A DNA stretch of 61,981 bases, counting the filler. It is 13 parts of 13 records of this genome, joined end to end, with 100 filler letters (N's around TTAATTAATTAA, not from the genome) between each part and the next. Parts side by side here need not be neighbours in the genome. Positions count along the whole stretch, not along the records: positions 45,683 to 50,358 come from SRR7504441_27595; 12 more parts are not named here. One strand, written 5' to 3'. Positions within the stretch are counted from its first letter, which is position 1. Every line of letters starts with the position of its first letter. This document shows, in pieces, positions 4,988-58,953 of this stretch. Both the position numbers and the translations under genes were made by a program. The notes under the pieces were generated by a model. It saw only the letters and a list, made by a program, of their open reading frames with translations, was not told the DNA's origin and made no database searches.

Positions 4988-5087
4988 NNNNNNNNNNNNN
5001 NNNNNNNNNNNNNNNNNNNNNNNNNNNNNNNTTAATTAATTAANNNNNNNNNNNNNNNNNNNNNNNNNNNNNNNNNNNNNNNNNNNN
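4988..5087. other. Artificial contig linker (N-run + TTAATTAATTAA six-frame stop + N-run); 12 copies in the window
   Basis: Identical 100-nt blocks at 4988, 9459, 12599, 19064, 22289, 29251, 33079, 37398, 45583, 50359, 55592 and 58854; genes are cut at these points. Confidence 0.97.
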
Positions 5088-8753: not shown

Positions 8754-10620
8754 GGTGAGATGAAAACATGACATTGTACTTGTAAAAGTATGATTGCATG
8801 TCTGTACATGTACAGGACAGCACAGTACAACCGTATGCAACGCCATTGTCTCAATCGGCGTAACATTAGTTCTAATCGGCGAGAATCGTGGAGAATAAGC
8901 GAGCGAGCGCTTTATACCCAGGCGCGTAAAATCATAAACACGTATTTGATGACAAGGGATGGTACAGGAATGGTTAATTAAACATTGTTTGTACTGTATG
9001 AGTAACTTAACTCACGCGCTCAATATTGATAATTTTGTATTAATCAAGAAGGCCTTGCAAGGGGTTGCGAGACTGCCAGGGACGAACTGTCGGTGCACGT
9101 GCTCCGTCTGTGACCGAAGCGCTGAAGTGATTAAGTAGGTGGATTAGTTAGAACCAACATTAAACTAGGTGCGTCGCTGCTATACGGCCGGGCTAATAAG
9201 GCCGCGCAAACTAATTTACTTGATAGTGTGCACGTGTCTATCATAAGGCTAAGTATGTCTATAGCCAGAGGGACGGACCAAGAAGAAGCGGAAGAACTCC
9301 AAAGCGTCAATGGACAATAATACATCCACCTATTTTTTGAACCAGGTACTTGGTTTGGAAAATCGAAATGTATGCCCGATGTCGTTGTCATTGCGTGGCA
9401 TGGGGCCCTTGATGCGAACGACGCCGTTACGGCGTTGGCGTTGTTGTTGCTGGCGTTGNNNNNNNNNNNNNNNNNNNNNNNNNNNNNNNNNNNNNNNNNN
9501 NNTTAATTAATTAANNNNNNNNNNNNNNNNNNNNNNNNNNNNNNNNNNNNNNNNNNNNTGATAGGTGACCTCGTTCCTATAATTATGTGGCGGCAAGGGA
9601 GACAGCGGCATCAGCTTCCCGTTCGTGCTCCGACTCCTCGATCAGGCCAGCCTGCACGCCTCCCAGCGTGTAAACCGGAGGGTTTCGGGCCAATGACCAA
9701 GCCGCCGACCCCGCAGCCGGTTGAGCAGGACTGCCAGTCAAAGCAAGGACCGATCGTCCCGGCGGCCGAAGCGGCGCAGATCCGCCCGTCGGCGGGGGGA
9801 TGCCACCGATGCCGTTGATCCCCCAATTATTGCCGTCCTCGTAGCCACCGTGCCAGGGCGTGCCGTGACGATTGTTCATGCCTTGCAGCCAGCACAGCCT
9901 AGTTTACCGCCTTATCGCGGCTAATCGGAGGCCCCCGTTTCTCAGGCCATCTCGGCGTTTACTGAAGAGTACCGAGTCACTCCCGCGTGTTATTGGGCCC
10001 GCACACACCAGCAGCATCCCCCGCCTCCATTCGCTTTGCCGGAGACCTGGATGGCGCACAACAGCTGCAAGCGGATTGCTTCCGGGGCTTGGGGGACACC
10101 GGGAGGGGCTGAAACATACGCGAGTTGGGACGAGGAGGCTAGAATTTGAAGCAGCGCAAAACAAGCTTCATTCAGAGCAAGACAATAAGGCGGAAAATCT
10201 CAAGGAGCAACGGCTCCGGAATGTCTTCAATCGCCGAACCCTTTATATCAATCAGCTACATCACGATCCCTGCAATGCCCCAAAGCTGAACATGAAACAC
10301 ATGCATGGCCACATTGTCTCTGATAAGGTTGTCAACACAGCCGAGTAAAAGGCTTGAAAACAACGCCATGAACTAGCCATGAACAACGTTGAGTGTATTC
10401 CGAGTGCCCAAGCTAATGAGCTAAGGCATTTGGATACTGAAGCCGGATTTCGATCAAAGCAGTCTTAAAATTTAAGTTAAATGAACATACGAGTACAATA
10501 CTATCATATACGTGTACAAACGCATTCGACATGCCAGTTAATTAGCTGGTTAGGCTATGCTGTGCAATACGGTACTGCGGAGCTGTGCAACGAGAGCTTT
10601 GTAGGGCTCACGTACGTAAC

Positions 10621-12598: not shown

Positions 12599-12766
12599 NN
12601 NNNNNNNNNNNNNNNNNNNNNNNNNNNNNNNNNNNNNNNNNNTTAATTAATTAANNNNNNNNNNNNNNNNNNNNNNNNNNNNNNNNNNNNNNNNNNNNAG
12701 GCGCCAACAGGGCGATACGCTCTGCGGCTGTGCTGGTAGGGCAGCAGCCGGCCACAGGGCGGTGCG

Positions 12767-18943: not shown

Positions 18944-19386
18944 TTCGTTCTCGAGCTCGCCTGTTTGGATCCCTTGATGCTAAAAAAGCTTCAGGAAATG
19001 CAACGCAAATATGCAATAGGATGACTACGACTGTAGGGACTGTTTCACGATCCCCAGAGTTACNNNNNNNNNNNNNNNNNNNNNNNNNNNNNNNNNNNNN
19101 NNNNNNNTTAATTAATTAANNNNNNNNNNNNNNNNNNNNNNNNNNNNNNNNNNNNNNNNNNNNATCCAGTTGTACAAATCAATGAAATCACAGAATTCGA
19201 ATAAATCTTCGAGGTCGGACGCGCAATCATTTGTTTAATTAATTGCCATTCTCGTTTTGTGTTCACACTACTAGTACAATTAATGGCTGTTGTCATGCAA
19301 CCCAACAACGCCCAAATTGACCAATAATGAATTGAAACGCTTGTACTGAAAACCCTTCACTTGCGAGACCACAGGGAACCAGCTGG

Positions 19387-21924: not shown

Positions 21925-22484
21925 TTCAAAGTGCAGGCAGTCCTTCCCGGCAGGCCCGGCGCGCCTGGAAGGAATTCAGCCAAGGATTATCCAACAAGGA
22001 GGCCAAATCTGCCAAATCTCAAAGGTACGAGGCAGCAGGACGTGCACACGATCACCCTGTACGAGAATCACAGGAAACCTACGTATTCACTTTGTCATTT
22101 TTCAAGTTTTGAGCACCGGAGCACACTAGCACACACTGACCATGACAAATGACAATATATATTATATTTTTGTACGAGTAATATATTTGTAACACTCGTA
22201 CGATTAAGCAGTTAATTCGAAGCCGGCGCTTATTATGATTAGTCCCGGCCCGCGCGATAGACGTGGAGCTCTCGCCATCTACTGCCCANNNNNNNNNNNN
22301 NNNNNNNNNNNNNNNNNNNNNNNNNNNNNNNNTTAATTAATTAANNNNNNNNNNNNNNNNNNNNNNNNNNNNNNNNNNNNNNNNNNNNATAAACGGACAC
22401 TCATGCGCAAAAAAAAAAAAAATGTTGGCGGGAACAAAACTGTTCTCAAATCGTGAAGTGATGCTTATCCCTGGAGGGACCCGA

Positions 22485-26798: not shown

Positions 26799-28949
26799 AT
26801 GGAGCAAGCTGGACAGGCGCCCGCTTCGCCGCACGCGCTGGCGACCTTGGACCCGGCCGAGGCCGCACTCGAGGCCAAAGTGGCGGCCCGGCTGGCTGCC
26901 CGGGCCACCGAGGCCAAGCTGGCCGTCCTGGACCGCCCGCTTCCGCCGTCCCCACTGTCGGACGCCACCCAGTGGCCCGCCCGCGCCAGCGAGCTGGTCA
27001 GACGCGCCCAGGCCGCCATCGGGCCGGGCGCGCCGGCGGGGCACCCGGCGCTGCTCGAGCCAAGCCCGCCGCTCGGTCCGGGCGGAGAGGTCGGGCGGGT
27101 GAGCCCAGACTTGTTTGGCGCGGCCGAGTTGGGCGAGATGTGCGCCGGAGTGGCTGTCTGGATGGACCGGGAGATGCGCGGACAGTTTGACGACAAGCAC
27201 GACCCGTTCCGCTGGATGATCCACCTCGGGCTTTGCGCTGAGCTCCCCGAGCGGCTTGACACCGAGCTGAGCTGTGTGCTGGAACCTGGAGCCAGCGGAG
27301 CTGTGATCGACCGCACCCTGGTACGGCCTGGCTTTGGCGGCTGCCAGCCCGGACGGCAGGCGGCGATTCGGAGCGGGGACTTTGAGCTGGCGGCGAGCAG
27401 CGCGGCTGAGGCTGTCGAGGTCGCCACAGCCCATCAGGAGAGCACTCAGCGCGCGAGAGCGATGGTGGCGCAGGCGGTCACGGCGCGCCGGTCCGGGGAC
27501 CCATCGCGGGCAGTGGCGCTGGGCCAGCAGGCAGCGGCTGCAGCGGTCGAGGCCGAGGATGCGCGCGGGCTGGCCGAGAGTGTGAGCGGGCTGGCGGCGG
27601 TGCTAGCGAGCCAAGGCTGCCTCGACGAAAGCATAAAATTACTTGAATCCGCGCTCAGTTCGCTTCCAGAGAAGCTGCCGGCTACCCGGGGACTGCTTTT
27701 GGCCCGGCTGGGGGTGGTCCTGCTCAACCAAAGTGCGCTGCTAGTTAGTATGGTCAGCCGCTCACTGTACGGTGATTTAGGTGAGTACCACCCAGCAGCA
27801 TGGGCGCTCCACGAGGCCGCACAGCTGCTAGCGGCGGCAGGGGACCGTTCTGCCGCCGCCCAGAGCCGGCTGAGCAAGGCGCTGGCTCTCGAGGGCCACG
27901 GGAGAGAGCTTTTGCCATATGCCGGGAAGGGATTTTCTCGCAGAGGTGAGGGCTTGATATCAGCAGCACTCGGTGTGGAGGAAGTGCTCGAATGGTCGCT
28001 GGCTGAGGGGGACAAGGCGCTGGCGGGCCGGGCGCATCTGCAGCTGGCGAGGTGAGGGCCAGGGCAGGGGCGTGGCGCGAGTGGTGGGCAGGCTGCATCA
28101 TGGCGAAGGCCGAATGTTGTTGGCTACGCAACACGCCCGTAAAGGGCTCCGGTGTAGTGAAGCTACCGGTGATCAGGTGGGCCGGCTGATGGGTCATCAG
28201 ATGCTTGGAGTGGTGTTGAGCGAGCACGGGGATGACCTTGACGGAGGGCTCGAACATCTCAACTCCGCGCTGATGATCGCTCACGAGTGTCGGAGCGTTC
28301 AGCTGTGTGTGGTGGCGTACCAGTCGCTCTGCGGCCTCTTTTACAAAATGTCGGCAATCTGCCACAAGTATAGCTCGCCTGCAGCCGGCACAGCGTACGG
28401 TGCCTGGACGAGAGGGTTTGCAAGCTTGACCGACGCGCCCAAGAGCGACACGTGGGGACTGGACACAGATAGGGTCGACCCGACCGCCCACTACTCGACT
28501 GTGCGGGTGCACCAGCCGTCGGACGCAGCCCCGTGGACTCAGATGACGTTTGATGAGTTTTGCACTCAGGTGTACAACTTTCAACACAAGCCGGTATGTG
28601 TAATGCGCGCCGGATCGGACTGACTGGATTGCAGGTTGAGTTGATCGAGAAGCTCGAGCCCCTCACACACTGGAAGCCGCCAGCATACACCGCTGAGCCG
28701 ACCAAGCCTGGGGAGAGCGTAGGTGTGCTGGAGAAAATGGACCGGGTGCGCGAGAAGGCGGAGTATGCTCGAGGCAAAAAGCGGGAGGTGATCGCGCGGA
28801 GGGTGGGAGAACTAGAGGAGACAGAGCGATTCCTGGAGGTGTGGGGACTGACGGAGCCGGAGCTTCAGCGGCTGAGCATGCTGACCGATCCGTTTGATCA
28901 CCACGCGCTCAAGGAGATCCCTACTGAGACCACCTGCCTGGCGGATTAG
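26799..28949 (+). CDS. TPR-like helical repeat protein
   Basis: Repeated A...LG......G....A patterns (LAAVLASQGCLDESI, LARLGVVLL, HQMLGVVLSEHGDDLDGGLEHL); mini-introns join ORFs 26784, 27973 and 28560. Confidence 0.6.
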
Positions 28950-29736
28950 GCTCTACATGTAATTCTCCGCATTATGTGTGGTCACATCGTGCCTCTATGA
29001 GTATTTAACTCACTTCCATTAATTTTAATTCGGGTCATGATTGTGTGAGTACATGTACGTACTGCGTACAATCATGTATTGAATATAATTTGCACTCACA
29101 TGATTGTATTGTAATCAATTAGTAATCAAGCATAACTAAAGCTAGCATTTGAAACGTCGGCTTGTCGATGTTAGTGACTACACTGTATGCCCATCGCCAA
29201 GCTCAGAGTACACATCACTCCCGAGGATGGCAGTCATGTAAAAAAAGAACNNNNNNNNNNNNNNNNNNNNNNNNNNNNNNNNNNNNNNNNNNNNTTAATT
29301 AATTAANNNNNNNNNNNNNNNNNNNNNNNNNNNNNNNNNNNNNNNNNNNNGTGAGTGGGTGAGTGCCCAAGTGCCAAGACAAAATATTACAATACGAGCA
29401 TGAATACGAGTACGACAAGTACGAGTACACGTGTGCACGGCCAGCACGGCTTTCAGCTCTTAGTAGCTTATTAGTAGCTAACAATTAAATCAATGTACAA
29501 AAATTAAATGATAATGACGGCCAACGCTAAGTTTGTGCATCAAGGGCTTGGAATGGGTGTCTGTCCGGTGGCCCACCGCAGCGTGATGAACTCCTCACCG
29601 CAGTTCTCACAGCTAGCTGCAGTCATGAACGTGGCTCTCACCTTGATGCTCTTGAAAATCAAATCACCCTGGCGCTCAAACACCGGGCTTCACCGTGATG
29701 CCTCATGATGTCTGGTCACTGATTTGCGCTCGGTGA

Positions 29737-33078: not shown

Positions 33079-33310
33079 NNNNNNNNNNNNNNNNNNNNNN
33101 NNNNNNNNNNNNNNNNNNNNNNTTAATTAATTAANNNNNNNNNNNNNNNNNNNNNNNNNNNNNNNNNNNNNNNNNNNNCATTGAAGCCACCGGCTTTCTA
33201 CACGTACTTCGGCATGAATACAATTTCTGTAGTGTCAGATCACTGCACTTCAATATTTCAATATGTACAACATGATAATTATTCACAAGTGCTCACATCC
33301 GACTGTCTTA

Positions 33311-35056
33311 CTAACTAGGACCACTGGCACCGAAACCGCCCGAACTCGTATTCACCGTAGCATGCATGCTCGCGAGCAGAGCGGCTACGGCCTCGTGGCC
33401 TCCCCCTAGCGCCAGCTCGTACGGCGTGCCGTGCCTGCCTCGCCCGCAAGGGTTGCTCGCCAACGACAGCGCCCGGTCCAGCTGGCCACACGCCTTGAGT
33501 GCCTCGATCAACTCCTCGACCACCGCCTCCCTCCCGTGATACGCCGCCTGGTGCAGCGCAGTATGGTACCACGGCCCGCCATTGGTAACCATTGGGTCGG
33601 CGCCTTCAGCCAACAGCGTGCGGATTTTGTCACGATTATCCGTATTCCTTGCAGCTTCGTTCAACTCGGCGTCGATCGACTTCTCAGAGAACTGTCGGGC
33701 CAGCCCAACCGCCTCGTCGGACAGCTCCCCGTCAGCCCCGACCAGAGCGGCCAGGGCATCTTGCTTGTCGAAACCCATCTCCTGTAGCAGCCACGCGTTC
33801 AGCTCCAGCACGTTCTGTTCAGGGTCTGCTGAATCCGGCGGGCTGCTGGCGGCGGGCGGGGCGGCTTGCCGCTGTGTGCGAGCTGCAAGTTGGATGGCCT
33901 GGGCCACCAATGCGTGCGGCCGGCCGTGCGATTTCGACAGCTGGCCAGGGTTGTCAACGAGGAATTGTACAGTGGTGCTCAGGTGCTGCTGCAGCCGACC
34001 CACCGCCTTGTGGTCAACACAGCCGGCAATCGCCCGCATGAACGGCCCTAGCACGAGCAAGCCGGCCCCGAGAAGCGGCTTGGGGACTTTGTGGAATAGC
34101 GGCTCTACTGTGTGAAGCAGTCTGCACAGCTCCTGTGACTCACGGGGAAACCGGCAGCACAGCTGCTCGACGCACTGGTTGAGCGGGGACTTGAGCAGTC
34201 CGGCCAGCGTGTGGGGGTGATCTGGGATAACCGGATCGTACTGAACCCTCACACTTGCAGGCAGTGCGCCGTGGTGCACCGCACACAGGCTGTGCTCGCC
34301 GAGTCGGCCCCGCCAGCGCACCCCGCGTATCGGCCCGCACGAGCACTGCTCGCACCGCACCCCCGGATGCTCGCCCTCGCACTGCGGCTCCTCCGCTCCG
34401 CCAATCACCTCCAGGGAAACCCAGAGCCGCTGCCCAAACCGCCTCTCCCGCGGCAGCGCAGTGGCCAGCCGCCAATAGGTGACGTACGGCCCTGGCTGAT
34501 CGGGGGCCCGGAGCCGCGCCGACACCTCCACTTCCTGGTTGGGCACAACTGACCCCTCCACAGGGGCCTCAGTCTCGCCCTCGAATAGACTTCCCCCCAC
34601 GTGGATCAGCCGGGAACCCTCGGGCCAGCAAGTGGGGCCCGTGTTCCGGAGCCGCCAGGTCTTGACAAACCACTCGCCCGGGGCGCACCGCCAGCCGTCC
34701 GGCCCAGTGACGTGTGCCACGAACCTGGCCTGAGGCACCGCGCACGGCCCCGCACAAGCCGCCAGGGTGCGCCGCGGCTCGGGGCAAGCCGTCGGGTGCT
34801 CCGGGAGGGTGACGGTGAGTCGGATCCGCCGGTCCGCCTCCAGGTGGGCGACGGCCTCGTCCAGGTCCGGAGGGCTGGCTATGGTGATGAGGTCGCCGTC
34901 CTCGTCCGTGTACGTGAGCCGGAGCGGGGAGTCCGGCGGGAGCTCGAAGGCCCGGCGGACGCCGGACTGGAGGGCGGGCAGTGTGAGCTCGACCTCGGCC
35001 CACCGCCGCAGGTCGCCCCCCAGGTCGGCCTTGACGATCCAGGGCGGCTCAGCCAT
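33311..35056 (-). CDS. NBR1-like selective autophagy receptor with C-terminal ankyrin repeats
   Basis: PB1 (IVKADLGGDLRR..LTYTDEDGDLITI), NBR1/FW domain (FVKTWRLRNTG..WP..FGQRLWV), ZZ-like (HPGVRCEQC..GPIRGVRW), UBA (LQEMGFDKQDALAAL), ankyrin (TALHQAAYHGREAVVEELI). Confidence 0.8.
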   Translation of the reverse strand: MAEPPWIVKADLGGDLRRWAEVELTLPALQSGVRRAFELPPDSPLRLTYTDEDGDLITIASPPDLDEAVAHLEADRRIRLTVTLPEHPTACPEPRRTLAACAGPCAVPQARFVAHVTGPDGWRCAPGEWFVKTWRLRNTGPTCWPEGSRLIHVGGSLFEGETEAPVEGSVVPNQEVEVSARLRAPDQPGPYVTYWRLATALPRERRFGQRLWVSLEVIGGAEEPQCEGEHPGVRCEQCSCGPIRGVRWRGRLGEHSLCAVHHGALPASVRVQYDPVIPDHPHTLAGLLKSPLNQCVEQLCCRFPRESQELCRLLHTVEPLFHKVPKPLLGAGLLVLGPFMRAIAGCVDHKAVGRLQQHLSTTVQFLVDNPGQLSKSHGRPHALVAQAIQLAARTQRQAAPPAASSPPDSADPEQNVLELNAWLLQEMGFDKQDALAALVGADGELSDEAVGLARQFSEKSIDAELNEAARNTDNRDKIRTLLAEGADPMVTNGGPWYHTALHQAAYHGREAVVEELIEALKACGQLDRALSLASNPCGRGRHGTPYELALGGGHEAVAALLASMHATVNTSSGGFGASGPS

Positions 35057-37285: not shown

Positions 37286-37932
37286 TCCATGGAACTGTAC
37301 GAGTACGTAGCCAGATGATCATTCGATTCGTGATTGACGCTAGCTATATAGGAGTACATGTACACACAAGGATTGATACAGCTTTATTTACATGCCGNNN
37401 NNNNNNNNNNNNNNNNNNNNNNNNNNNNNNNNNNNNNNNNNTTAATTAATTAANNNNNNNNNNNNNNNNNNNNNNNNNNNNNNNNNNNNNNNNNNNNATG
37501 GGGTGTCAATTCAAATCCCAGACCCTGAATCGCTGGCGCTCGAGACCGCCAACCGGCCAACACGCCGCACGATAAGACGCCAGCGGCTAGACGATGAACC
37601 GCAATAAACTTTTACGATAACCTGCGCATGCATCCTTAAGCTTGGCCCTGGCTAATCAGAATCCCGGATCCCGGTAGATCCCGGGATCCCACCGTACTGA
37701 AATGAATTCGAATGAGAAGACTTAGGAGAAATACGTGCGCAAGGCTCATCAAGGGCATACCCGGAGTCTGCGGGACCGGCCCGCCCGAACTTCGCCCTTG
37801 CTTGCAAGCTCTGATGCGTGATGCAATGATGCTCGGATGCTTCCCTATCCGCCTATCAAATTCAGTGTCAATGCTTGAGCTGATCATGACAAGAAATTCC
37901 ACACGCAAACCGTTGGATCCACGCATGGAGTG

Positions 37933-40900
37933 ATGAGGGCGAGCAGGCCAAAGTCGCCGCGCACCGCCCGGCGGCCGAAGTCGCCCGGCCGGGCCAGGAC
38001 CCCGCGTTCCCGGTCGGTCGATCCGAGCAAGACTCCCCGGCTGCACAAGCCGTTCACCCCGGCCCCAGTCTCCCAGCACAGCGAGTTCAGCGCGCAGGTG
38101 GCCGATGGGCAGGAAATCCCGCTGCCTACCTGGGCGCTCCAGCCGCTCAACAACCCGGAATGGGCCGAGGACCTGCGCCAGCTGTTCCACTACTATGCCT
38201 CGTACGGGACGAGCGCGGAGGAGTCGGCGGTGGAGTCAATCACCCGATCAAACTTCTGGAAGCTGATAAGGGAGTGCGAGCTGGTGGATCAGAGCGTGAA
38301 TGCGTCCAATGTGGACCTGATTTTCCACCAGTGCTTCCCGCGGCACCGGCGGAGCAACAACAAGCCCAGGATGAGCTACCACCAGTACCTGCTGGCCCTG
38401 GCGCTCCTCGCCCAGCGCAAGTACGGCCACAGCGACCCGGTCGGCGGACTGTCTCACCTGATCCACCAGCACTTGCTGCCCAACGCGCACCGGGTGCAGT
38501 GCAGCTTCCGGTCGGCCGCAGCCTCGATCCCACCCCCGCCGTGCGACCTGGCCACAAGCCGAATGTTTGAAGAACTCGATCCGACCCTCTCTGAGCTCTT
38601 CCAGCTCTACTCGCGCAACAAGTCCATCCAGAAGCGCGGCCGGCCCGGGTGGCCCAGCCGCCAGCGGTTGGCTGACGGCAACGGACAGGATGCTGCTCAG
38701 GGAGCTGCACAAGCTCGCTGAGGATCTCGGGATTGTCCCCAAATTGCTTTCCTTCGCCGAGGTGGGCGCGCGCGCGCTGCCAGGCGAGCGCCGGTGGCCA
38801 GGCCACCCAGCTAGCCAAAGCCAGCCTGAACGCTAAGGGGAGCGACTTGCTCGATTACGAAGCCTTTCTGGACTGGATGTACCGAGCCGCCACCCATGGG
38901 TTGGCCAAACCTCCGTACGCGAGGCACGAGGCCTGCCAGGGCCCGGGGCTGAGCCGAGGCAGCTTGTACGAGACAGCGGCCGAGAAGGTGGAGAAGCTTT
39001 TCGAGATGATCGACCGGAGCCCGCTCTGGGTAAAGGCAGCGATTAATCAACGGGGCGCCCGACCAAAGTCGGCATTCGCGAAGCAGCGTCAGGTGGCCGG
39101 TCCTATGTGCCGGCTGAGCAGCGGCAGGTGAGTATGATCGAGGCGGGGCAAGTGCTCCAGAAGATGGCGCTGGCAGACCGGGCCGAGCTGGTCGGGCTGA
39201 TCATGAGCGAGTTGGCCAATCAGGGGCTGACCAGCATGCTCGAGAGCACTTTTGAATTCTACTGCACGAGTGCGGAGAGTGCCAGCTCGGACGCAATGAA
39301 GGGGTTCATGTTCTACAAGTTTGTGCGAGACTCCCAGCTGCTCGAGGTGCCGGCCGCTCGCGTGTGCCCTGACCCGGGCCAGGCGGCCAGGCACGAGCAG
39401 GTTGACTTGCTCTTCCTGCGATGCGTCAACCAAAACGACAGGCGGGCTGGGCCGGCGGTTGGGGGTTAAACCGTGTGGACAGCTCGCCGATCCCGCCGTC
39501 CAAGCTCCGGATGCGGTACGATCAGTTTCTGCTGGCGCTGGTCGAGCTGGCAAAGGTGCGGTCGACTGCGAGTGTCTCGAGCTGTGGGGTCAGGCTGCAC
39601 TGCCGGACGAGCCAGACCCGGTGGCCGGGACAATTAAACTCGTGTCGGAGCGTGTGCTCAGGTGATGACCGCATGTGTGTAGCATTCTCACAGGGCGCAG
39701 GAATGCTCGTCGAGTGGAGAAGTTCGAGACTATGCTTACGCTCTGCCCAGATGTTAGGGCAGTGCTTGAGCAGGACGAGGTGCGAGCCGGCCGGGGGCAT
39801 GACGCGAGGCGAAAGCAGGACTTGATTGAGGCCGTGTTTGGGTACTACCACGACATCGACCTGGAGGACGGGCGGGTCAAGGTGCACGGTGCATGGGACA
39901 CAGAGCTGACCTCGGGCAGGTGTCTGGCAGCGACCCTCGGCTCTCGCTGGAGGGCGTGCTGAGGATGGCCAAGGAACTCGGACTATCGGCGCACGTGGCG
40001 TCCCACCAGGAGCTGTGCGTGCTGTTCAGGCTGTGCCGGGACCAGTCGGACACACCCAGCCTGAGCAAGGCCCAGTTTTGCGAGTTGCTCTGCCGGTGCG
40101 CCATCCTGTGGTGCGGGATCGACGAGCACTCCGAGGTGCCCACCGGCTGGCCAGCCACTGACAGGATGGCAGGCCTCGGAGCTCGTGGCGAGCGTTGCTT
40201 CGTTCTTGGAGAAACTGTGGGATGCTGAGGGCATGAAGGCGGTCGAAGCCTGGAAGTGTCGCACCCAGACCAGCAAGGCCGCCCTGCTCAAGTCGCCCCG
40301 CTCGGCTCCGCGCAAGCAGCCCCCAGCACAGCTGCCCGCAGTCTCCCCGTTTGGAGGCTCGCCTCACACCGCTCAGAAGATGACGCCAGTGGCCAGCACC
40401 ACCCTGCTCTGCCCGTCATGGGCTGTGCAGTTGTATAGCAGCCCGAAGAACCATCAACTGCTCAGCACAGTTTTCCTGCACTACAAAGCGATCGAGACAC
40501 CTCACGACGGGCTCTCGCCCGGTGGAGTGCAGAGCGAGATGAATGTGTTCACGGCCAGCAAGCTGTACAAGCTGCTCCGCGAGCTGGAAGTGATCCAAGT
40601 GCACGCCGAGCTGCCTCAGGTCGACAAGATCTTTGGCCAAATCCTAGGCTGCAACTTCCACCGGTACCAGGAGATCACGTTCGAGAACATGAAAACGGCC
40701 CTGGCTAACATCACAGGCGACAGCGACAAGCTGGCGGCGCTGCTGCTCAACCAGCTCCCAAAGTTGGCCCAGAGGCTGCCAGCCCAGCAGCAGGAGCAGC
40801 AGCCGGCAGTGGGGCTGGCAATCAGCCCAGCAGCCACCACCGAGCAGGAGTGGGACATGTTGCTTGGAATATTCTGCCACTATGCCACTCGCACCACGTT

Positions 40901-43900
40901 TGTCAACCCGACTGAGTTGTGGAGCTCGCCAGATAAGATCCGGTTTGCGCCAATGAATGAGGCTCGGGTGTCACAGCGGCAGCTGGGGATACTAGCCTCC
41001 GAGCTGCTGCTGATGCCCAATCTGATCTCTAGAGACCTGGCGCTCGGGGCGTTGCTCAAGAAAGCGATCGGCGATGCTGCTCTGAGCACGACAATGGGCA
41101 TGAATATGCTCTGGCCGCAATTCTCGCAGTGGATCGTGCTATGTGAGGCCGAAATGTTCGAGGAGCCATCCGGGCTGGCGAGGATGATCGGACAGATGCG
41201 CGCCGCCAAGCATTTCGACATGATCATGGGCGGGTGGGCTCGAGTGGACCGAATGATTGGGCACGAACTTGTCGAAAACTTTGGGCCTTACGACCCCAAG
41301 ATGGACATGCGCGTGCTGCACCAAAACATCGGCGGCTCTGCGCTGCTGCTGCAGCAGTTCATGGACCACCTGGTGCTGGCAGAGAGGGAGATCAGCCTGC
41401 GCGAAGTGTTCCGGTACTACTGCTCGATGGGGGAGGACTGGCCAACTGACGTGCTCACCCTCCAGAAATTCATCAAGCTGTCGTCTGACGCGTGCCTGAT
41501 CGACAATGTGTTGCCGCATCAGATGATTGTGCTGGTGTATCAGCATGTTGTTGGCAACAAATTGTACGGGATGAAGTGGGAGGACCTGCTGGTCGGGATA
41601 ATCGAGCTAGTGCTCCTCAAGTTTGGGACAGCCCCCGACAACATGGCCACCCTCGCCGACGCGCTCGACGGCCTGGTGCTCGCCTACTGCCACAAGCGCC
41701 CGATCAGGCTGTCGCTTGAGGACGCCGAGCAGTTTATGGCTCCAGAAGTGATGGATGTGCTGCTAGAGAGAGACGACCTGCTCCAGGACTTGTTTGCCAG
41801 CTTTACGAGCCCGCACGAAGACGTCCGGCTGCTCTCGTCCGAGCAGCTGCTTGACATGGCCCTCCAGTTCGAGTTGATCTCCAGCTGGACAACAGAGGAC
41901 GACCTGGTCGAGATGTTCCGCCTGTCCAACGTGGAGCACCCTGGAGCCGACCTGATGTTCACTCAATTTGTGGAGCTCGTCTGCCGGCTGTCTGCGCATG
42001 CTGGCCGCTCGGACACCACGCCTGCCGCCCGGCTTAGGGCGATACTAGACCGGATTGCATCCACCTCAGCGGCTAAAGGGCTCAAGAAGGCCGCAGCAGG
42101 CCCTTCACACACCCCTCATTTGATGCGGAATGCGTCTCCGCGAGCCGCCACCCCAGCAACAGTCGTGACGCCGCGGGCTAAGACTCCGCGCCCTTCTACA
42201 CCAGGCCGGAGCCGACCCTCCACGCCTGGGCGAAGCCGGCCGTCCACACCAGGCAGGAGCCGGCCGCCGACCCCTGGCCGGAGCTGGGCCCCATCAACTG
42301 CGACTGCGCTGGAAGGCAATATCACATTCACCTCGGATCGGTTCGGCCGCAGTGTGATCATAGGCGACCCAAGCGCACCGCAGGACGACGAAGTGAACAG
42401 TATGCGAGTGCAGAACGAGGAAGAGGCCGCGTATACACTCAACATGCTCTGCCAGGAGGATGCGGAAGCAGTGCGATCCGTGTTCGACTTTTACTGCTCT
42501 TATGCGGAGTCGCAGCTACAAACCACGATGAAGAGCAGCAATGTGTACAAACTAGTGCGCGATGCCAGGATCGAGGGTGACGCAGTCAACTCAAGCAATG
42601 TAGGAGTGATAATTGCCAAATGCCAGCGAGTAGGCTGCGCCTCCTCGCGAATCGATCTGACCACTTTCTACATGATGTTGGCTGAAATGGCGCAGCGGCT
42701 CTACCCGGGTCAGCACGACTCGATGGAGCAGTTCCTGGACGAGTATCTAGCACCGCTGGCATCTCGGATAGTCAAAGCCCCAGTCGGGCCTGACCAGAGC
42801 GACAGCGATGCCAAGATCAGCGGGCTGCTCAAGCAGTGCTATGAGGACCTCATGACTCTATTCGATCATTACTCCACCCTCCAGGTCACCAACACCAAAA
42901 TATTATTAATTATTAAGTATTAGTCAGTGGTGCGATGAGGACTTGGTCTGACCCTTGCTACAGGCTCCTGGCAAGCGGCAGCGGAGCAGCGGCGACTGGA
43001 ACACGATCCTCACCGCCAACACCACCATCTCGCTCAAGGAAGTGACTAAATTTGCCGAGGAGTTCGACATAGTGCCATCGTTGCTCTCCAAGATGGAAGT
43101 GGGCCGGCTGATGCGTGCAGTGCTCGGCGCGAGTCCCAATAATCAGTTGATCCTGGACCAGTCAGGCTTCGTCGAGTGGGTGCGGCGTGCAGCGCTGCAC
43201 GGCTTCTCGAGGAGCGAGTACACTGACGAGTACCCGGATGACGCCGCAAAGGTCGAAAAGCTGCTCAAGGAGATTGACTCCTCGCGCGTCTTGCACTCGA
43301 TCAAGGCGGCGAGGGGCAAGCGGCACGATGCGCTCTTCTCGCGGCACCACAACGAAGCGATGCAAAAGAACGCACAGCGACGGGACTTGACGGAGCGGAA
43401 GGTTCAGAGGGATATCGAGCAGCGGTTGTTTCAGCTGCTCGAGAACAAGGGAATGCATGATGACCTCCGACGTATTTTTGACTTTTACGCCTCGTTTGGT
43501 GAGGACTCTAAAAAGGATTCGATGAAGGGGTTCATGTTCTTCAAGCTCGTGCGCGACTGCCAGCTGCTAGATAACCGACTCTCCTCCGAGCGCGTCGACC
43601 TGATATTTGCTGAGAGCGTCGGCAAGTCTGGAGGGAGGAAGCGGCGGGCGCGTCTTGGTCTTAACAAGTTCGTGCTGGCGTTGAGCTCTTTGGCAAAGAT
43701 TAAGCTGCCGCACTTGGACCTGTTTGATGGATTCCTGCAGCTGTGTGAAGACTATTTGCTCCCTCTCGCCCGGAGAGCCGACGAGTCGGCGCCGGTATTT
43801 GGGACGTTCCATCACAGTGCCGTGCAAGACTTGCTCGAACAGCGCTCTCTGCTCTTGTCAGTAGTTTTCAACCATTATGCGAGGTTAAGCAAGTCTGTGT

Positions 43901-44257
43901 CGGGCGCAACACAGCGAACGGTGCGTTGCTCCTACGCTGGGTGGTGGCTGATTCTGGGTACAGATGACTTTGAGAGACTTTCTCAAGTTTGCAGGAGACT
44001 TCGGAATTTCGTCCTCGATTGCGTCTAATCAGGAGCTGTCTAGAATATTCTATGCGACAGTGGATATCAAAGAGGAGGCCAATATGGAGCATTGGAAGCA
44101 AGTGATCACACGCTGCGCGATGCACTGGGGGAACCTCAAGATCGGAAGGACGGCCCCGACCGACATTGCGGACCGTCTCCTCAAGTTCATCAATGTGATG
44201 GAAAACTCAGAGGCAATGATTCCAATAGAGCAACGGTTTGGATCTGCAAGGCATTGA
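37933..44257 (+). CDS. Giant protein with ~12 tandem p25-alpha/TPPP-like (EF-hand-like) modules
   Basis: Repeated L..(V/I)F..Y.....M....F.K..(R/K)(D/E)..L.D.......VDLIF.......(M/L)...QF..AL..LA matches the p25-alpha fold; many mini-introns join the ORFs. Confidence 0.75.
42189..42284 (+). repeat. Coding 24-nt tandem repeat, (RPSTPGRS)x4
   Basis: Peptide RPSTPGRS RPSTPGRS RPSTPGRS RPPTPGRS with synonymous divergence between units. Confidence 0.9.
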
Positions 44258-45565: not shown

Positions 45566-45947
45566 GCTTCCCGGTGTGCCGANNNNNNNNNNNNNNNNNN
45601 NNNNNNNNNNNNNNNNNNNNNNNNNNTTAATTAATTAANNNNNNNNNNNNNNNNNNNNNNNNNNNNNNNNNNNNNNNNNNNNTCGTTTATTAGGTAAACC
45701 CTAAATACCCTCCGGAACCGAAGATTTCGAGCTCAATTGCCGAGGTCGTGCAACTATTATATTATCATATCAAGAATCAAGACAGGCTCTGACGTACAGC
45801 TGGGTTCAATCTGTACGAGACTAGACTACATGCAAACCGACGCTAAGTCGGTGCTCAATGATCTATCAATCAATCTCTGTGTGTCGCGCTAGCTAGCTTT
45901 GCTCAAGCCACTAGCCACTGGTCAGTACCTCGGCTCCGGCCTCCGGC

Positions 45948-46670
45948 TCATGCTGCAATGGCGCTGGCCACAAACCTGGCTCGCAGTTTGCGCACAAACC
46001 CAGGGAAATCATTCGACGCTCTGAGCGCCTCGAGCATTGAATCCAGCTCAGGCAGGGCCGGCTTGCAGCTGCCCTCCGGGATCTGGTACACATTGTCCGA
46101 GTCGACGCACACTACCACCGAGTGCTCCTTGAGCGCGTCGGCCGGGTCGATGTGAGTGAACACCACCCGGAGGAAGTCATCCTCAACCCGCTCGAAGCGG
46201 AGCCCGAGCCGGGTCTCGTAGGTGAGCTGGCCGAGCTCCTTCTCGAGCCGGTACTGCTCGCACTGCTGCTGGTACCGGGCGATGGTGGCCTTGACCTCCG
46301 CTATCTTCTTCTCCTCCTGGGCCACCTGGTGCTCCGTCGTGAGGCTGGCGGACATGAGCCCCTGCAGCTTGGCGTTCAAAGAGGCGATCTCGCGGTCCAC
46401 GTCGGCCAGCTTATCCGGGCTCACCCCCTGGTCCTGGGCCAGCGTCTTGGCCTGCTGCAGCAGCGCCTTCTCTTGGGTGTACAGTTCCTTGATCCGCGCC
46501 TCGGACACCTCGGCGCCCTTGGTGCACTGGGTCTGCATCTCGTTCAGGCTGTTCATGTGGGTGTCCTTCCACGAATCGAACCGCGTCTTGGCCTGCTCCA
46601 GCATCCCCTCCAGCCGCGCCTCCATCTGCTTGAAGTTGTTCTCCGTGCTGGGCTCGCCCACCTCTTCCAT
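45948..46670 (-). CDS. SPC25: Kinetochore Ndc80-complex subunit SPC25
   Basis: Coiled coil followed by RWD-like head YETRLGLRFE...LRVVFTHIDP......Y....C.P.LP.L..L...L..SNDF..FVRKLRARF. Confidence 0.88.
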   Translation of the reverse strand: MEEVGEPSTENNFKQMEARLEGMLEQAKTRFDSWKDTHMNSLNEMQTQCTKGAEVSEARIKELYTQEKALLQQAKTLAQDQGVSPDKLADVDREIASLNAKLQGLMSASLTTEHQVAQEEKKIAEVKATIARYQQQCEQYRLEKELGQLTYETRLGLRFERVEDDFLRVVFTHIDPADALKEHSVVVCVDSDNVYQIPEGSCKPALPELDSMLEALRASNDFPGFVRKLRARFVASAIAA

Positions 46671-46716
46671 TTGGACTTGAATCGGTGCGTTCCGTTGAAA
46701 TCCGGAGTGCGGTGAA
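46671..46716. promoter_or_regulatory. 46-bp bidirectional spacer with TCCGTTG (46691-46697)
   Basis: Between the SPC25 and RNA ligase starts. Confidence 0.65.
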
Positions 46717-47945
46717 ATGGTACCAGCCAGCACGCTGTTCCGCCGGTGGTACGCCGACCGGTGCTGCGTGCCCGGGCCGGCAGTGGTCACGGACGAGTGC
46801 ATTGCCTCGCTCGAGCTCCAGATCACGGGGCTGGCCGACCAGGTGCGAACCCTCAAAGAGGTGGCCCTGGCGCCACGCGAGGAGTGGCTGCCGCTAGTCG
46901 AACAGCTCAACCAGCTCAAGGACCGACTGCCCCAGAGCCACAGCCTGTCGCGCTCGGCCTTCAACGCCGGCAAGAAGCGGGCGGCCGCCACCAAGCGGGA
47001 GGAAGACCTGGCTCGCCGGCAGCAGCTGGCTTCGGAGCTGGCAGCCCAGGCCGAGCTGATCGTATTCCCAACCACCCAGCGCAAGGTGACGCACGTGCTC
47101 AGAACGGTCGGTCACGGCGACCAGTTCAAGTACGCCGGGGCCGAGCTGTCGGACGCGCTCCCTGAGGGGTGCGATGTGTGGAGAACCGAGAAGTGGTGCC
47201 GGCCCGGCCGGGGCACAGGGCTGAATGCGGGGAAGGGACGGCACAACGGTGCAAGCCACCCGAGACGGGATATTCAAGCGTCTGGATAAATTCGCCCGGG
47301 GCTCCAAGCAGAAGCGGAGCATGCCTGTGGCCGATCGTTACGAGCTCCGCCTGGTCGCTTGGCGCGCGGTGCGGTGCGCTCTCTTGAGAGGTTTGAGTGG
47401 GGGCCGCAGGGGCCCGGGGACTGGCGGGGGCTCGAGACGGACGAGTGGATAGCCGACTGTGTCGGGCGTTACCTGCCTGTGTTTGAACGCATCCCACCAG
47501 GCTGCTGCATTTACTTTGAAGCAGTGCACAGCAAGATCAACCAAACGTTCAAACAGGTCGCAACCCGCCCCGCCCCGACCGAGCCCCAGGGCAGGTGGAC
47601 GGGCTGGCCGAGATCCGGGTGTTTGACCTGGCTCGGAGCGCTGTCCCGGTGGAGCAGATTCCTCTTGGCTCTCAGTGGCCTGAAGGCCGGTTTGAAGACT
47701 TTAGCGCGACGCTCGAGCTGTGCAAGGAACTCGGGCTGCCGGCGGTGCACCACACCCGCGAGCGGCTCGACCCGGCGGCGGTGTGGGAGTGGCTGGTCGA
47801 GTTGGGCAGCAAGCAGTATCGGGACGTGCCCGCTTTGCTGGAGGGTTACGTGCTGCGAGTGGTGGGCGATGGGTCGCAGGTGGCTAAGCTGAGAGCCGAG
47901 TATATCAGCTCCAGGCAAGAGAAAATGAGCGCCGCCCGACCCTGA
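46717..47945 (+). CDS. ATP-dependent RNA ligase, RLIG1/C12orf29-like
   Basis: After splicing: motif I TEKWDGT, III YFE, IIIa VFD, IV EGYVLR, V AKLR; upstream TQRKVTHV..QFK..AE.S.AL recalls RLIG1 VQRKMPCVF..PFKVLATE. Confidence 0.7.
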
Positions 47946-48047
47946 TTAAAACGCAATCCTATTTACACATACGTATATTCAATACACTTCGTTAAAAGGC
48001 GTCAGAGTCTGCACACGAAGCACCACACCTTCCGGCATCCGCACAAA

Positions 48048-49904
48048 ATGGTCGGATTGGTCGCAGGGAGAGTGTGCGTTGCGCTCGGCGTAGCAGCGCT
48101 GTTGGCCGACTGCGCCGGGGCCGGGCGGGCCGAGGCGCCAGTGTGGCTCTTCGTCGACCCGGGAGTGGTGCCGGAGCGGCCGACGGGGTCTCAGGCGGTG
48201 CCCGGGCCGGTGAGCAAGGCGGCGGGCAACCCGCTGCTGGTCGAAGACCGGATCTGGGACGTCCGTTGGGACAACACGTACATCACCGCCCGATGGGACC
48301 CCGGGCTCCAACGGACGCGGCTCTGGTGGAACTCGCAGCTCACCTGCAAGGGCGACGGCACCACGGTCATCTCGCCGCACGACCAGTGCGGGCACCCCTC
48401 GTGGCACGCCGACCCCTCGTTTACCGGATTCTGGCCGCAGCAGGACGCGCTCAAAGGCGGGCTGCTCTACGCGGAGGCTGGACGGGAGGGGCTCGAGTTT
48501 ATCAAGCCGGAGTTGGGGATAATACCGGGGTATGCGTACAGCATGGCCCAGAAGCGGAATGTGATGGTGAGTAACCTGACCAACATCCTGCTCCAGGCGT
48601 ATGCCGACCCTAACCGGGGCGTGATCTACGACGCGCATGAGACAAACAAATCTCGCCGGTACAAAGCTTTCGGCAGCTTCTGGAATGATGAGAGGAGCGC
48701 CCCGGGCGATTGTGCCAGGCCTGATAGTGCAGTGGACGGTGATGTCTGGCCGGGCTGTGTCAACATCGGTGTGGCGTACAGTCCCGACGGGATTCACTTT
48801 GACCATGCGCTCGACGAGTCGGCGTTTCGGCCGGGCAACCAGCCGGGCACCCGGCAGATCGGACAGGACGATGGAGCGCTTGACCTTGCTGTGTGGGATG
48901 AAGACCTGGGCTCTTACTGGGGACTGGTGCGCGTGGACGTCAAAGGGTTCTCGATGGGCGGGAAGAAAAACGACCCCTGCTCCGACCACGGGGGCACGGT
49001 GATGCTCCAAGGTTAGGGTCAGGGTTAGCCAGGGGTGGCAAGGTGATACCGCCCAATAATTGCTCAAACGGACGAAGGACTGGTCGTTTCACCACTAAAG
49101 ACTTTGTGACATTCACGCACGCAGTTCAAGTGTTTAACGGTGGGTCCACGCCAGCCAGCAGGCACCGCTGAAGCTCGGGCAGGCACCGCTGACTATGAAA
49201 TCTATACCTTGCAGCCGTTTCGGCTGCCCTCGTACCGGGCGGGTTACTACCTAGCCACGGGGATGTTCTTTGAGGCTCACGAGGAGCAGGAGATCGTCGA
49301 ATGCGAATTGCTCCAGTCTACAGATTTCGGTGTCTCGTGGTCCCAAATAGCCCCGAGGGTGCCATTCATCCCACGAGGCAACGCCACCATCCGGCCTGAC
49401 GGGACTACAGACCCAGCCGGGAATGCATTCGACTCGCACACGATCTACACTGCCTGGACAGGCGACCAACTCCCGTTCCTGGATCCAACCGACCCCAGCA
49501 AGACCCGGTTCTATTACTCTGGCGGTAACGGACCGCACTCGGGTCAGCGGGACGATAGTATTGGGCTGGCATACGCCACGACACACGCCTACGCGGGGCT
49601 TAGGGTTCCGGGTGGTAGCACCATCATCTCTGCGCCGCTGAGAGTCGAAACTAAGCCGCGCGTGCTGTGGTTGCTCGCTGAGATCAAGGGCGGCTCGGTC
49701 ACAGTGGCTTTGGGCAGCCAGCAGCAAGGGCAAGCTGGGAGGTTCGAGTTAGTGGGGCATGTGAACCGAACAACAGGGCTGGAGCGGGTGCACCTCGACT
49801 TGACTCACCTGGCTCACCTTTTTGCCGCGCTCCCGGTGCTCCACTTGCAAGTCCGGTTTGGTTCGACCGGGTCCGTCGACCATTATGCATTTGGGCTCGA
49901 GTGA
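48048..49904 (+). CDS. Secreted beta-propeller glycosidase-like protein (bacterial-type, clan GH-J-like)
   Basis: Signal peptide; NPLL.ED..W, YAE..EG..F.KPELG, RRYKAF, AYSPDGIHF, STDFGVSW, FYYSGGNGPH, IGLA; two mini-introns. Confidence 0.6.
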
Positions 49905-49920
49905 TCAATGCATGCATTTG

Positions 49921-49971
49921 AAAATGACCATATGCGCTGTCCCCTCGTCAAAAAAAAAAATGACCATATGC
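49921..49971 (+). mobile_element. Micro retro-insertion: 14 nt + poly(A) between 15-bp target-site duplications
   Basis: AAAATGACCATATGC-gctgtcccctcgtc-A-run-(AAAA)TGACCATATGC. Confidence 0.6.
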
Positions 49972-50009
49972 ATGTCATTGTAATCCCTGTCTGTACATAC
50001 ATGATTGTA

Positions 50010-50306
50010 GTCACTTTTAAGTCACTCCGATTGTGCTGACCAGTAAATGGGGTAGCTTGGGGTGAAATATTAGAAATAATTGAAGAAACCTCTTCCGCTT
50101 GACCAACCAGTTAATACTGCATTACCTGACTGTAAGTAGAATAAGTAGCCATTATAGTTCTTTCCTAAAAACTAAGGGTTTCAGTTAGTTTGCCACTGAT
50201 TCAAAAACGCATCCATTGCATCATCCTGAGAACCAGTTTGTTGCAATCTTTCTAGCTTTTTCGCATCGGAGGCACGTTTGATTTCAGCACCAGGCCGGGT
50301 GGCCAT
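50010..50306 (-). pseudogene. Decayed bacteriophage fragment: scaffold C-terminus, SD-like RBS, major capsid protein N-terminus (DUF5309/SU10-type)
   Basis: ..AEIKRASDAKKLERLQQTGSQDDAMDAFLNQWQTN* (stop 50181), AGGA at 50163-50166, ATG 50152 MATYSTYSQ[18-nt insert]VGQAEEVSSIISNISPQATPFT; AT-rich, prokaryotic operon layout. Confidence 0.72.
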
Positions 50307-50732
50307 GGTTGATCGGTGGGGTTGCAGCTTTAATGCGAATAATGCTAGATCCTAACTANNNNNNNNNNNNNNNNNNNNNNNNNNNNNNNNNNNNNNNNNN
50401 NNTTAATTAATTAANNNNNNNNNNNNNNNNNNNNNNNNNNNNNNNNNNNNNNNNNNNNCTGGACGGCCCTGCCCAAAGCCTCGTCCACTGACCGGACCGT
50501 GCGGCCGCGAGCACTGCGGCGGGCTAGCGGCGGGCCTCCCACAGCTGCCGCCACAGTGACTCACCGTGTGCGAACTGCGAAGCGGTTCGCCCTACCGGTA
50601 CTTGTACACGTAGATTGAAGCGCGCCTGAAAATCCCAGTGTGTTCGTGAGTGCCGCGCGAGAAGTGCTGCAAGCTGCTGTCAGACTGAGCCCTGCCGAGT
50701 CACCGACCACTCGGACAGCGCGGACCGTGGGC

Positions 50733-55591: not shown

Positions 55592-55691
55592 NNNNNNNNN
55601 NNNNNNNNNNNNNNNNNNNNNNNNNNNNNNNNNNNTTAATTAATTAANNNNNNNNNNNNNNNNNNNNNNNNNNNNNNNNNNNNNNNNNNNN

Positions 55692-58853: not shown

Positions 58854-58953
58854 NNNNNNNNNNNNNNNNNNNNNNNNNNNNNNNNNNNNNNNNNNNNTTA
58901 ATTAATTAANNNNNNNNNNNNNNNNNNNNNNNNNNNNNNNNNNNNNNNNNNNN

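Follow-up and report, generated by a model that had tools for sequence, protein, structure and literature searches.

Near the end of a contig with eukaryotic genes lies a short stretch that reads like part of the head genes of a bacteriophage, and the question which it raises is whether this phage DNA resides in the genome of the eukaryote or has been joined to it only by an artefact. The window, that is the whole stretch of DNA analysed here (62 kb), consists of 13 contigs of 3.0-8.1 kb each which have been joined artificially and do not form one molecule. Since the contigs are held together by linkers (Table 1), features which seem to cross a linker are not real, and a position near a linker lies near a true contig end. 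The phage-derived piece is situated within the final 332 nt of contig 45683-50358, with the linker starting at 50359, and only 65 nt of the contig (50294-50358) follow it. The original prediction had noted that the piece is close to a contig end, and with the linker at 50359-50458 this is indeed the case.

Judged from the proteins that it encodes, contig 45683-50358 is eukaryotic. A Pfam profile search revealed an Spc25 kinetochore domain (PF08234, E 2.7e-16) encoded on the minus strand at 45948-46700, and a gene consisting of two parts matches a EukProt protein; the eukaryotic noncoding setting which had been proposed for the piece agrees with both. Other contigs of the window encode p25-alpha domains, an NBR1-like protein and NOT2/3/5 domains. 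When the NOT2 homologue was looked up in a protein atlas, the lineage returned was no narrower than Eukaryota. The p25-alpha (TPPP) domains are found one each in two adjacent long open frames on the plus strand, 40065-42920 and 42952-44025 (E 3e-09 and 3.6e-07). This protein family is associated with cilia, and the pair of frames may be taken as a hint of a flagellated source organism. The GC content of the host is about 60% and that of the low-GC islands, including the stretch with the phage piece, about 40%. Islands of this kind, 150-320 nt in length and similar to the stretch with the phage piece, are located at several contig starts and ends, and the contigs probably break at AT-rich intergenic DNA.

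Table 1. Positions of the linkers, the low-GC islands at contig ends and the features of the contig with the phage-derived piece
Feature	Position in the window	Strand	Remarks
Artificial linkers between contigs, first six	4988-5087, 9459-9558, 12599-12698, 19064-19163, 22289-22388, 29251-29350		n=12, identical: N44, TTAATTAATTAA, N44
Artificial linkers between contigs, last six	33079-33178, 37398-37497, 45583-45682, 50359-50458, 55592-55691, 58854-58953		as above
Low-GC islands at contig ends	8851-9360, 19171-19380, 22041-22280, 28931-29250, 29361-29550, 33181-33330		
Contig with the phage piece	45683-50358		4676 nt; linkers on both sides
Host gene, two open stretches	48048-49016 and 49110-49904	+	stop codon ends at 49904
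15-nt direct repeat	49921-49935 and 49957-49971	+	self-BLAST 15/15, E 0.004
AT-rich spacer, 91 nt	49936-50026		between host 3′ flank and phage piece
Phage-derived fragment, 267 nt	50027-50293	-	blastn E 4e-80 to L001/L002
4-nt insertion, capsid frameshift	50039-50042	-	then 12 homologous bases, 50027-50038
Capsid codons about 11-31, GQAEEVSSIISNISPQATPF	50043-50104	-	SU10_MCP E 0.021-0.039, profile positions 4-29
Span of the 18-nt insertion	50105-50125	-	50108-50125 or 50105-50122 (3-nt ambiguity)
SU10-type capsid codons 1-9, MATYSTYSQ	50126-50152	-	same as start of L002 protein
Phage intergenic spacer	50153-50180	-	AGGA at 50163-50166, ten nt before ATG at 50150-50152
End of scaffolding gene, 36 codons and stop	50181-50291	-	94% aa identity to L001 342-aa ORF and to P0007
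GC-rich non-phage flank, 34 nt	50294-50327		relatives instead continue in AT-rich scaffold codons
Contig end, AT-rich, 31 nt	50328-50358		unlike phage and X2 contig

When the whole window was compared by blastn with the fetched viral loci, 50027-50293 was the sole match and no second phage piece was detected in the 62 kb. With two insertions left out, 222 of 245 bases (90.6%) are identical to the viral locus L002. On the minus strand an open frame at 50181-50351 ends in ...KKLERLQQTGSQDDAMDAFLNQWQTN, with the stop codon at 50181-50183, and a tblastn search of IMG/VR with this 56-aa frame yielded one contig, L001, with 94% amino acid identity over residues 21-56 (E 2e-20). This value and that of blastn (E 4e-80) lie far outside what chance would produce. 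The profile matches are weak and lie at the right positions: PHROG 3927, head scaffolding protein, was matched with E 0.009 at positions 305-340 of 342, PHROG 1328, major head protein, with E 0.013 at positions 3-38, and Pfam SU10_MCP (PF17236) with E 0.021 at positions 4-29 of 292. The PHROG 3927 match together with the place directly upstream of the capsid gene identifies the first frame as that of a scaffolding protein. A complete capsid frame (about 300 codons) is absent, the homology stopping after about 31 codons, at 50027. The score of the fragment against PF17236, 13.9-14.8 bits, lies under the gathering cut-off of 24.1, as is expected for about 30 residues, and the relative L001 reaches 260.6 bits. 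An SU10-type capsid gene is the origin of the fragment, yet the fragment itself does not count as a member protein of PF17236. As a control we searched 10 ORFs, among the longest of 48 (35 aa or more) from 14 other low-GC islands; four of the 10 came from islands 8851-9360 and 22041-22280 and none from 19171-19380, 28931-29250, 29361-29550 and 33181-33330. None of the 10 control ORFs matched a named phage family (best E 0.043).

By its homology to L001 the piece is the end of the scaffolding gene and the start of the SU10-type (PF17236) capsid gene of a marine tailed phage. This is what the original prediction had recognized as a scaffold C-terminus joined to an SU10/DUF5309-type capsid N-terminus, and its details, the minus-strand scaffold frame, the AGGA ten nucleotides before the ATG and the start MATYSTYSQ, were all found in the places given there. 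The homology to phage proteins on which it relied is supported by the profile matches as well as by the tblastn and blastn results.

We then asked which phage could have been the donor. The portal of L001 is of the SU10 type (PF23899, E 2.6e-185), and so is its capsid gene (PF17236, E 2.7e-77); between the two there are an 85-aa and a 342-aa ORF. This order is the same as in the annotation of Methylophilales phage Venkman, namely portal, hypothetical, scaffolding protein and major capsid protein. The SU10-type head module (PF17236, PF23899) is known from Venkman and from marine and freshwater uncultured Caudoviricetes, and the fragment shares with it the order of scaffold, ribosome-binding site and capsid; it differs in that it comprises 36 scaffold and ~31 capsid codons and that the capsid is broken. 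The deposited phages nearest to the L001 capsid are spring uncultured Caudoviricetes (about 40% identity) and the OM43 phage Venkman (37%), and the nearest cultured phages share 37-41% capsid-protein identity with L001. The label of a marine podovirus of the HMO-2011 type, given as an example in the original prediction, had to be rejected: for Puniceispirillum phage HMO-2011 the annotation of the coat gene is P22-like (PF11651), and in a BLASTP comparison with the capsid protein of L001 the best E was 7.5.

Four IMG/VR contigs, L002 (the same contig as L001) and L003-L005, were aligned as relatives. The 25-nt core of the spacer between scaffold and capsid shows no variation among the four viral contigs and the window, and an exact scan of IMG/VR with the conserved spacer returned the same four contigs only. 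Exact scans of IMG/VR with the left junction, the window-specific scaffold stretch and the GC-rich flank were without match, as was a DNA search of 50,697 deposited phage genomes with 49990-50358. A closer donor was not detected at near length in a collection of 5.8 billion proteins, and a longer search there returned only P0007 (342 aa, 94% identical). Cluster P0007 of the scaffold protein also occurs on a contig of 43.1 kb which is possibly a complete genome; the IMG/VR contig of L001/L014 is 14.2 kb long, and the nearest phage group is known from four IMG/VR contigs only. The donor would be a fifth, unsequenced member of this small phage group and a distant relative of Venkman.

The capsid part of the piece is interrupted twice. 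The 18-nt insertion, which had already been described with its in-frame stop, brings a TAA codon at 50111-50113 and is followed on the minus strand by VGQAEEVSSIISNISPQATPF; its placement is ambiguous, the position given originally (50108-50125) being one of the two that are possible. Further indels had been suspected after the TPFT motif, and there we find one 4-nt insertion, after which 12 homologous bases remain. In the alignment of L002-L005 neither the 18-nt nor the 4-nt insertion is present in any of the four related viral contigs, and the 18-nt insertion with its flanks has no exact match in IMG/VR. An 18-nt spliceosomal intron was considered and rejected, as none of the possible placements has GT...AG ends. 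By eye, the end of the 18-nt insertion looks like the phage bases just upstream of the captured piece, a likeness which we do not count as evidence. The 15-nt repeat excepted, short-word BLAST yielded only chance-level matches for the 18-nt insertion, the 65-nt flank and the 91-nt spacer when these were compared with the phage loci and with the window; for the spacer, no match to the phage loci or to other parts of the window exceeds 15 nt. With no complete frame, with bacterial translation signals and in antisense orientation to the neighboring gene, the fragment would be nonfunctional in a eukaryote.

The point differences tell more about the history of the piece. Differences from L002 at codon positions 1, 2 and 3 number 5, 3 and 14 (66, 65 and 65 sites, respectively), and the excess at the third position, 14 of 22, has a binomial P of 0.003 (14 or more). 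Compared with L002, 50 of the 65 comparable codons are identical, 10 differ synonymously and five change the residue, and none of 31 intergenic positions differs. The viral contigs differ among themselves in the same way (for example 7, 2 and 14 by codon position for L002 versus L003), and at some sites the window has the states of L003-L005 and not that of L002. As the differences are mostly synonymous and at third positions, the divergence arose between working phages and not by decay. The lesions are limited to the two insertions and the truncations. Since the point differences still look as if they had been under selection, either a capture would be recent or the true donor is not yet sequenced. 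The substitutions give no sign of a long residence, and fresh contaminant DNA would look alike. The piece had originally been called decaying, a word which is not borne out as it stands: the piece is nonfunctional, its lesions are the insertions, and of the 22 differences 14 fall on third codon positions, with 10 synonymous changes among the 15 codons that differ.

On the host side the piece is preceded by a gene of which both parts align to one 511-aa EukProt protein, P0004 (44% identity, E 1e-55, and 42% identity, E 4e-49), and the alignment of 49110-49904 reaches near the C-terminus of P0004. No Pfam family was matched by 48048-49904. Homologues with 42-58% identity occur in EukProt, JGI, ENA and Logan data. 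On this evidence 48048-49904 is a two-exon gene encoding a conserved eukaryotic protein, which is probably secreted. The phage piece begins 123 nt beyond the stop codon of this gene and in the opposite orientation. In between there is a 15-nt direct repeat, the two copies of which are separated by a 21-nt spacer with a run of A at its end; this arrangement resembles a target-site duplication or a templated repair insertion.

Independent evidence on the junctions comes from metagenomes. A search of sequencing runs matched the window only in marine or aquatic metagenomes, and four of these, X1-X4, were examined. Their cover within 49936-50358 is confined to 50270-50307, and the 50026/50027 junction lies outside of it; the gaps in cover speak neither for nor against the piece. 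The 3′ end of the host gene is present in X1 (6 differences in 428 nt) and in X2 (1 in 239 nt; 99.6% identical), which shows that these waters are inhabited by the organism or by a strain close to it. In X1 as in X2 the host contig matches the window up to 49935 and no further, through its end or through divergence, and this position is the site of the 15-nt repeat. Past this position the X2 host contig continues with 24 letters unlike the window. Even with up to 3 mismatches allowed, these letters have no match in the window, so that an empty site does not emerge from them, and since the contigs leave the window at this point the join between host gene and phage piece is without independent confirmation.

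The situation is different on the other side of the piece. A 151-nt contig of X2 (depth 2) matches 50270-50307 exactly, that is 24 phage bases and 14 bases of the flank. Beyond 50307 the same contig stays similar to 50308-50327, from which a 4-nt indel and two C/T differences set it apart, before the likeness is lost. Being similar and not identical, the X2 flank cannot copy an assembly error of the window, which disfavors a one-off chimera. A second, diverged version of the left junction between phage and GC-rich sequence (50293/50294) exists in nature. The genuine integration that had been claimed thus gains some support from X2 at this junction, and on the host-gene side, where X1 and X2 diverge at 49935, it is unsupported. 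Exact scans of JGI metagenome contigs were without match for both the left junction and the host 3′ flank, exact scans of 185,579 prokaryote species genomes were without match for both the phage spacer and the GC-rich flank, with neither a prophage nor a bacterial carrier coming to light, and a plasmid and vector search with 49905-50358 gave no match.

Three other explanations have to be weighed against residence in the eukaryote. The one which survives best, and which we consider unlikely and yet a serious competitor, is a chimera produced in assembly, cloning or amplification: phage DNA of the sample, stemming from a culture contaminant, an ingested particle or a co-sorted virion, would have become attached to the contig end when a read was chimeric or the template switched, an event from which the small insertions would also stem as artefacts. 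The piece is located at a contig end, which is a typical site for chimeric reads, the assembly is highly fragmented, the metagenome contigs depart from the window at 49935, and the substitutions are patterned as in living phage. In addition many protist single-cell genomes are accompanied by phage DNA (PMC7541821). However, the junction of a chimera should be seen in this assembly alone, and 50293/50294 is also seen in X2, in diverged form; the assembly cannot have been built from X2 alone, as the X2 contigs differ from the window. A simple two-piece chimera would not produce what is seen within 430 nt, namely three or more breakpoints together with two internal insertions; the stop codon and the frameshift in the capsid are unexpected in DNA from infective particles, and a vector or plasmid match is absent.

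A remnant that is real and resides in some other GC-rich genome, be it of a bacterium, a large virus or a mobile element, so that only the join at about 49935 is false, seems improbable to us. The independent data back only the left junction, the host-gene side diverges in the metagenome contigs, and bacterial genomes contain phage remnants far more often than eukaryotic ones do. Against a bacterial residence speaks that the nearest cultured relative of the phage group infects a Methylophilales (OM43) strain; OM43 bacteria are low in GC, which would place a GC-rich bacterium outside the expected host range of the phage. Furthermore, the flank has no exact match in the 185,579 species genomes or in IMG/VR, which is weak evidence, and the eukaryote itself is present in X2. 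Very improbable, finally, is a location within a multi-copy eukaryotic repeat or transposable element that once acquired phage DNA, which would account for the two diverged flank versions and for flanks of X2 and the window that differ and then become unalignable though the nearby gene is 99.6% identical, but 49900-50358 has no second copy in the 62-kb window.

The X2 junction, the disabling insertions and the non-phage DNA on both sides of the piece (on one side 91 nt followed by 4.2 kb of the eukaryotic contig, on the other 65 nt with 34 GC-rich bases among them) together favor a dead copy that resides in the GC-rich genome of a cell. The GC-rich flank is also like the host in composition, and we count this for residence. 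Against residence weigh the location at the contig end, the thin support of the junction by a single contig of depth 2, the lack of exact matches in the JGI contigs and the fresh-looking substitutions. On balance we lean towards resident, inert phage DNA in this eukaryote as the probable explanation, with considerable reservation. The join on the host-gene side (49935/49936) may be chimeric. A more specific statement is that the nuclear DNA of a marine flagellate contains, in populations in the wild, a scrap of a lytic phage of free-living marine bacteria which was captured recently and is present in at least two diverged versions that could be alleles or copies; we put it forward tentatively, as a possibility falling somewhat short of probable.

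If the piece is resident in the eukaryote, its origin could be pictured as follows. The donor would be a lytic marine tailed phage with an SU10-type head module, which contributed a short piece of double-stranded DNA. The piece would reside in cellular DNA rich in GC, most likely in the nuclear genome of the organism to which the contig belongs, a marine and possibly flagellated eukaryote. Free linear phage DNA, which came from ingested particles or prey or had been taken up as such, may have been captured passively when end joining sealed a chromosome break. Filler or templated additions of such a repair could then account for the two small insertions, the 15-nt duplication and the 91-nt spacer. 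For numts such a capture by non-homologous end joining, with or without microhomology and with filler DNA, is described in the literature (PMC2820518).

Several known systems are comparable. Endogenous viral elements and transfers from bacteria and their prophages to eukaryotes are established, for example Wolbachia with its prophage in insects. The locus would have in common with them that viral sequence is resident in a eukaryotic genome and decays as a pseudogene. Endogenous viral elements, however, come from viruses which infect the host or its germline, and the Wolbachia transfers from an intracellular symbiont, whereas the phage considered here likely has a free-living marine bacterium as its host and the piece measures only 267 nt. 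Numts and nupts are likewise short and nonfunctional foreign DNA in noncoding nuclear sequence, their junctions are without long homology, and the extra bases are filler-like (PMC2820518). Their donor is the organelle of the same cell, in contrast to the candidate insertion from a free bacteriophage at this locus. A further parallel is the phage DNA in single-cell genomes of marine protists, which is common and does not involve integration (PMC7541821). Marine phage sequence in marine protist data is the shared feature; in that study the phage sequences form separate contigs and are taken as ingested particles (PMC7541821), whereas the piece described here is flanked on both sides by non-phage DNA joined to it and bears disabling lesions.

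Capture of foreign DNA by the nucleus is a known event, and a scrap from the lytic phage of a free-living bacterium in a marine protist would be unusual. In a literature search we found no published phage scrap in a protist nuclear genome, which is weak evidence of absence. Should the piece turn out to be an artefact, it would be a warning that the contig ends of fragmented protist assemblies may carry phage sequence which mimics gene transfer. Either way the phage piece is without a function of its own. If it is real, it would show in a clean and datable case how phage DNA from the environment becomes mere filler in a eukaryotic genome, and would be a direct molecular trace of a flow of DNA from phage to eukaryote through the ingestion of viruses or prey and the repair of breaks, in which neither selection nor gene function plays a part. 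It would represent the raw-material step of the “you are what you eat” mode of gene transfer, before selection acts, and would make it worthwhile to count such scraps across the genomes of protists feeding on bacteria or viruses.
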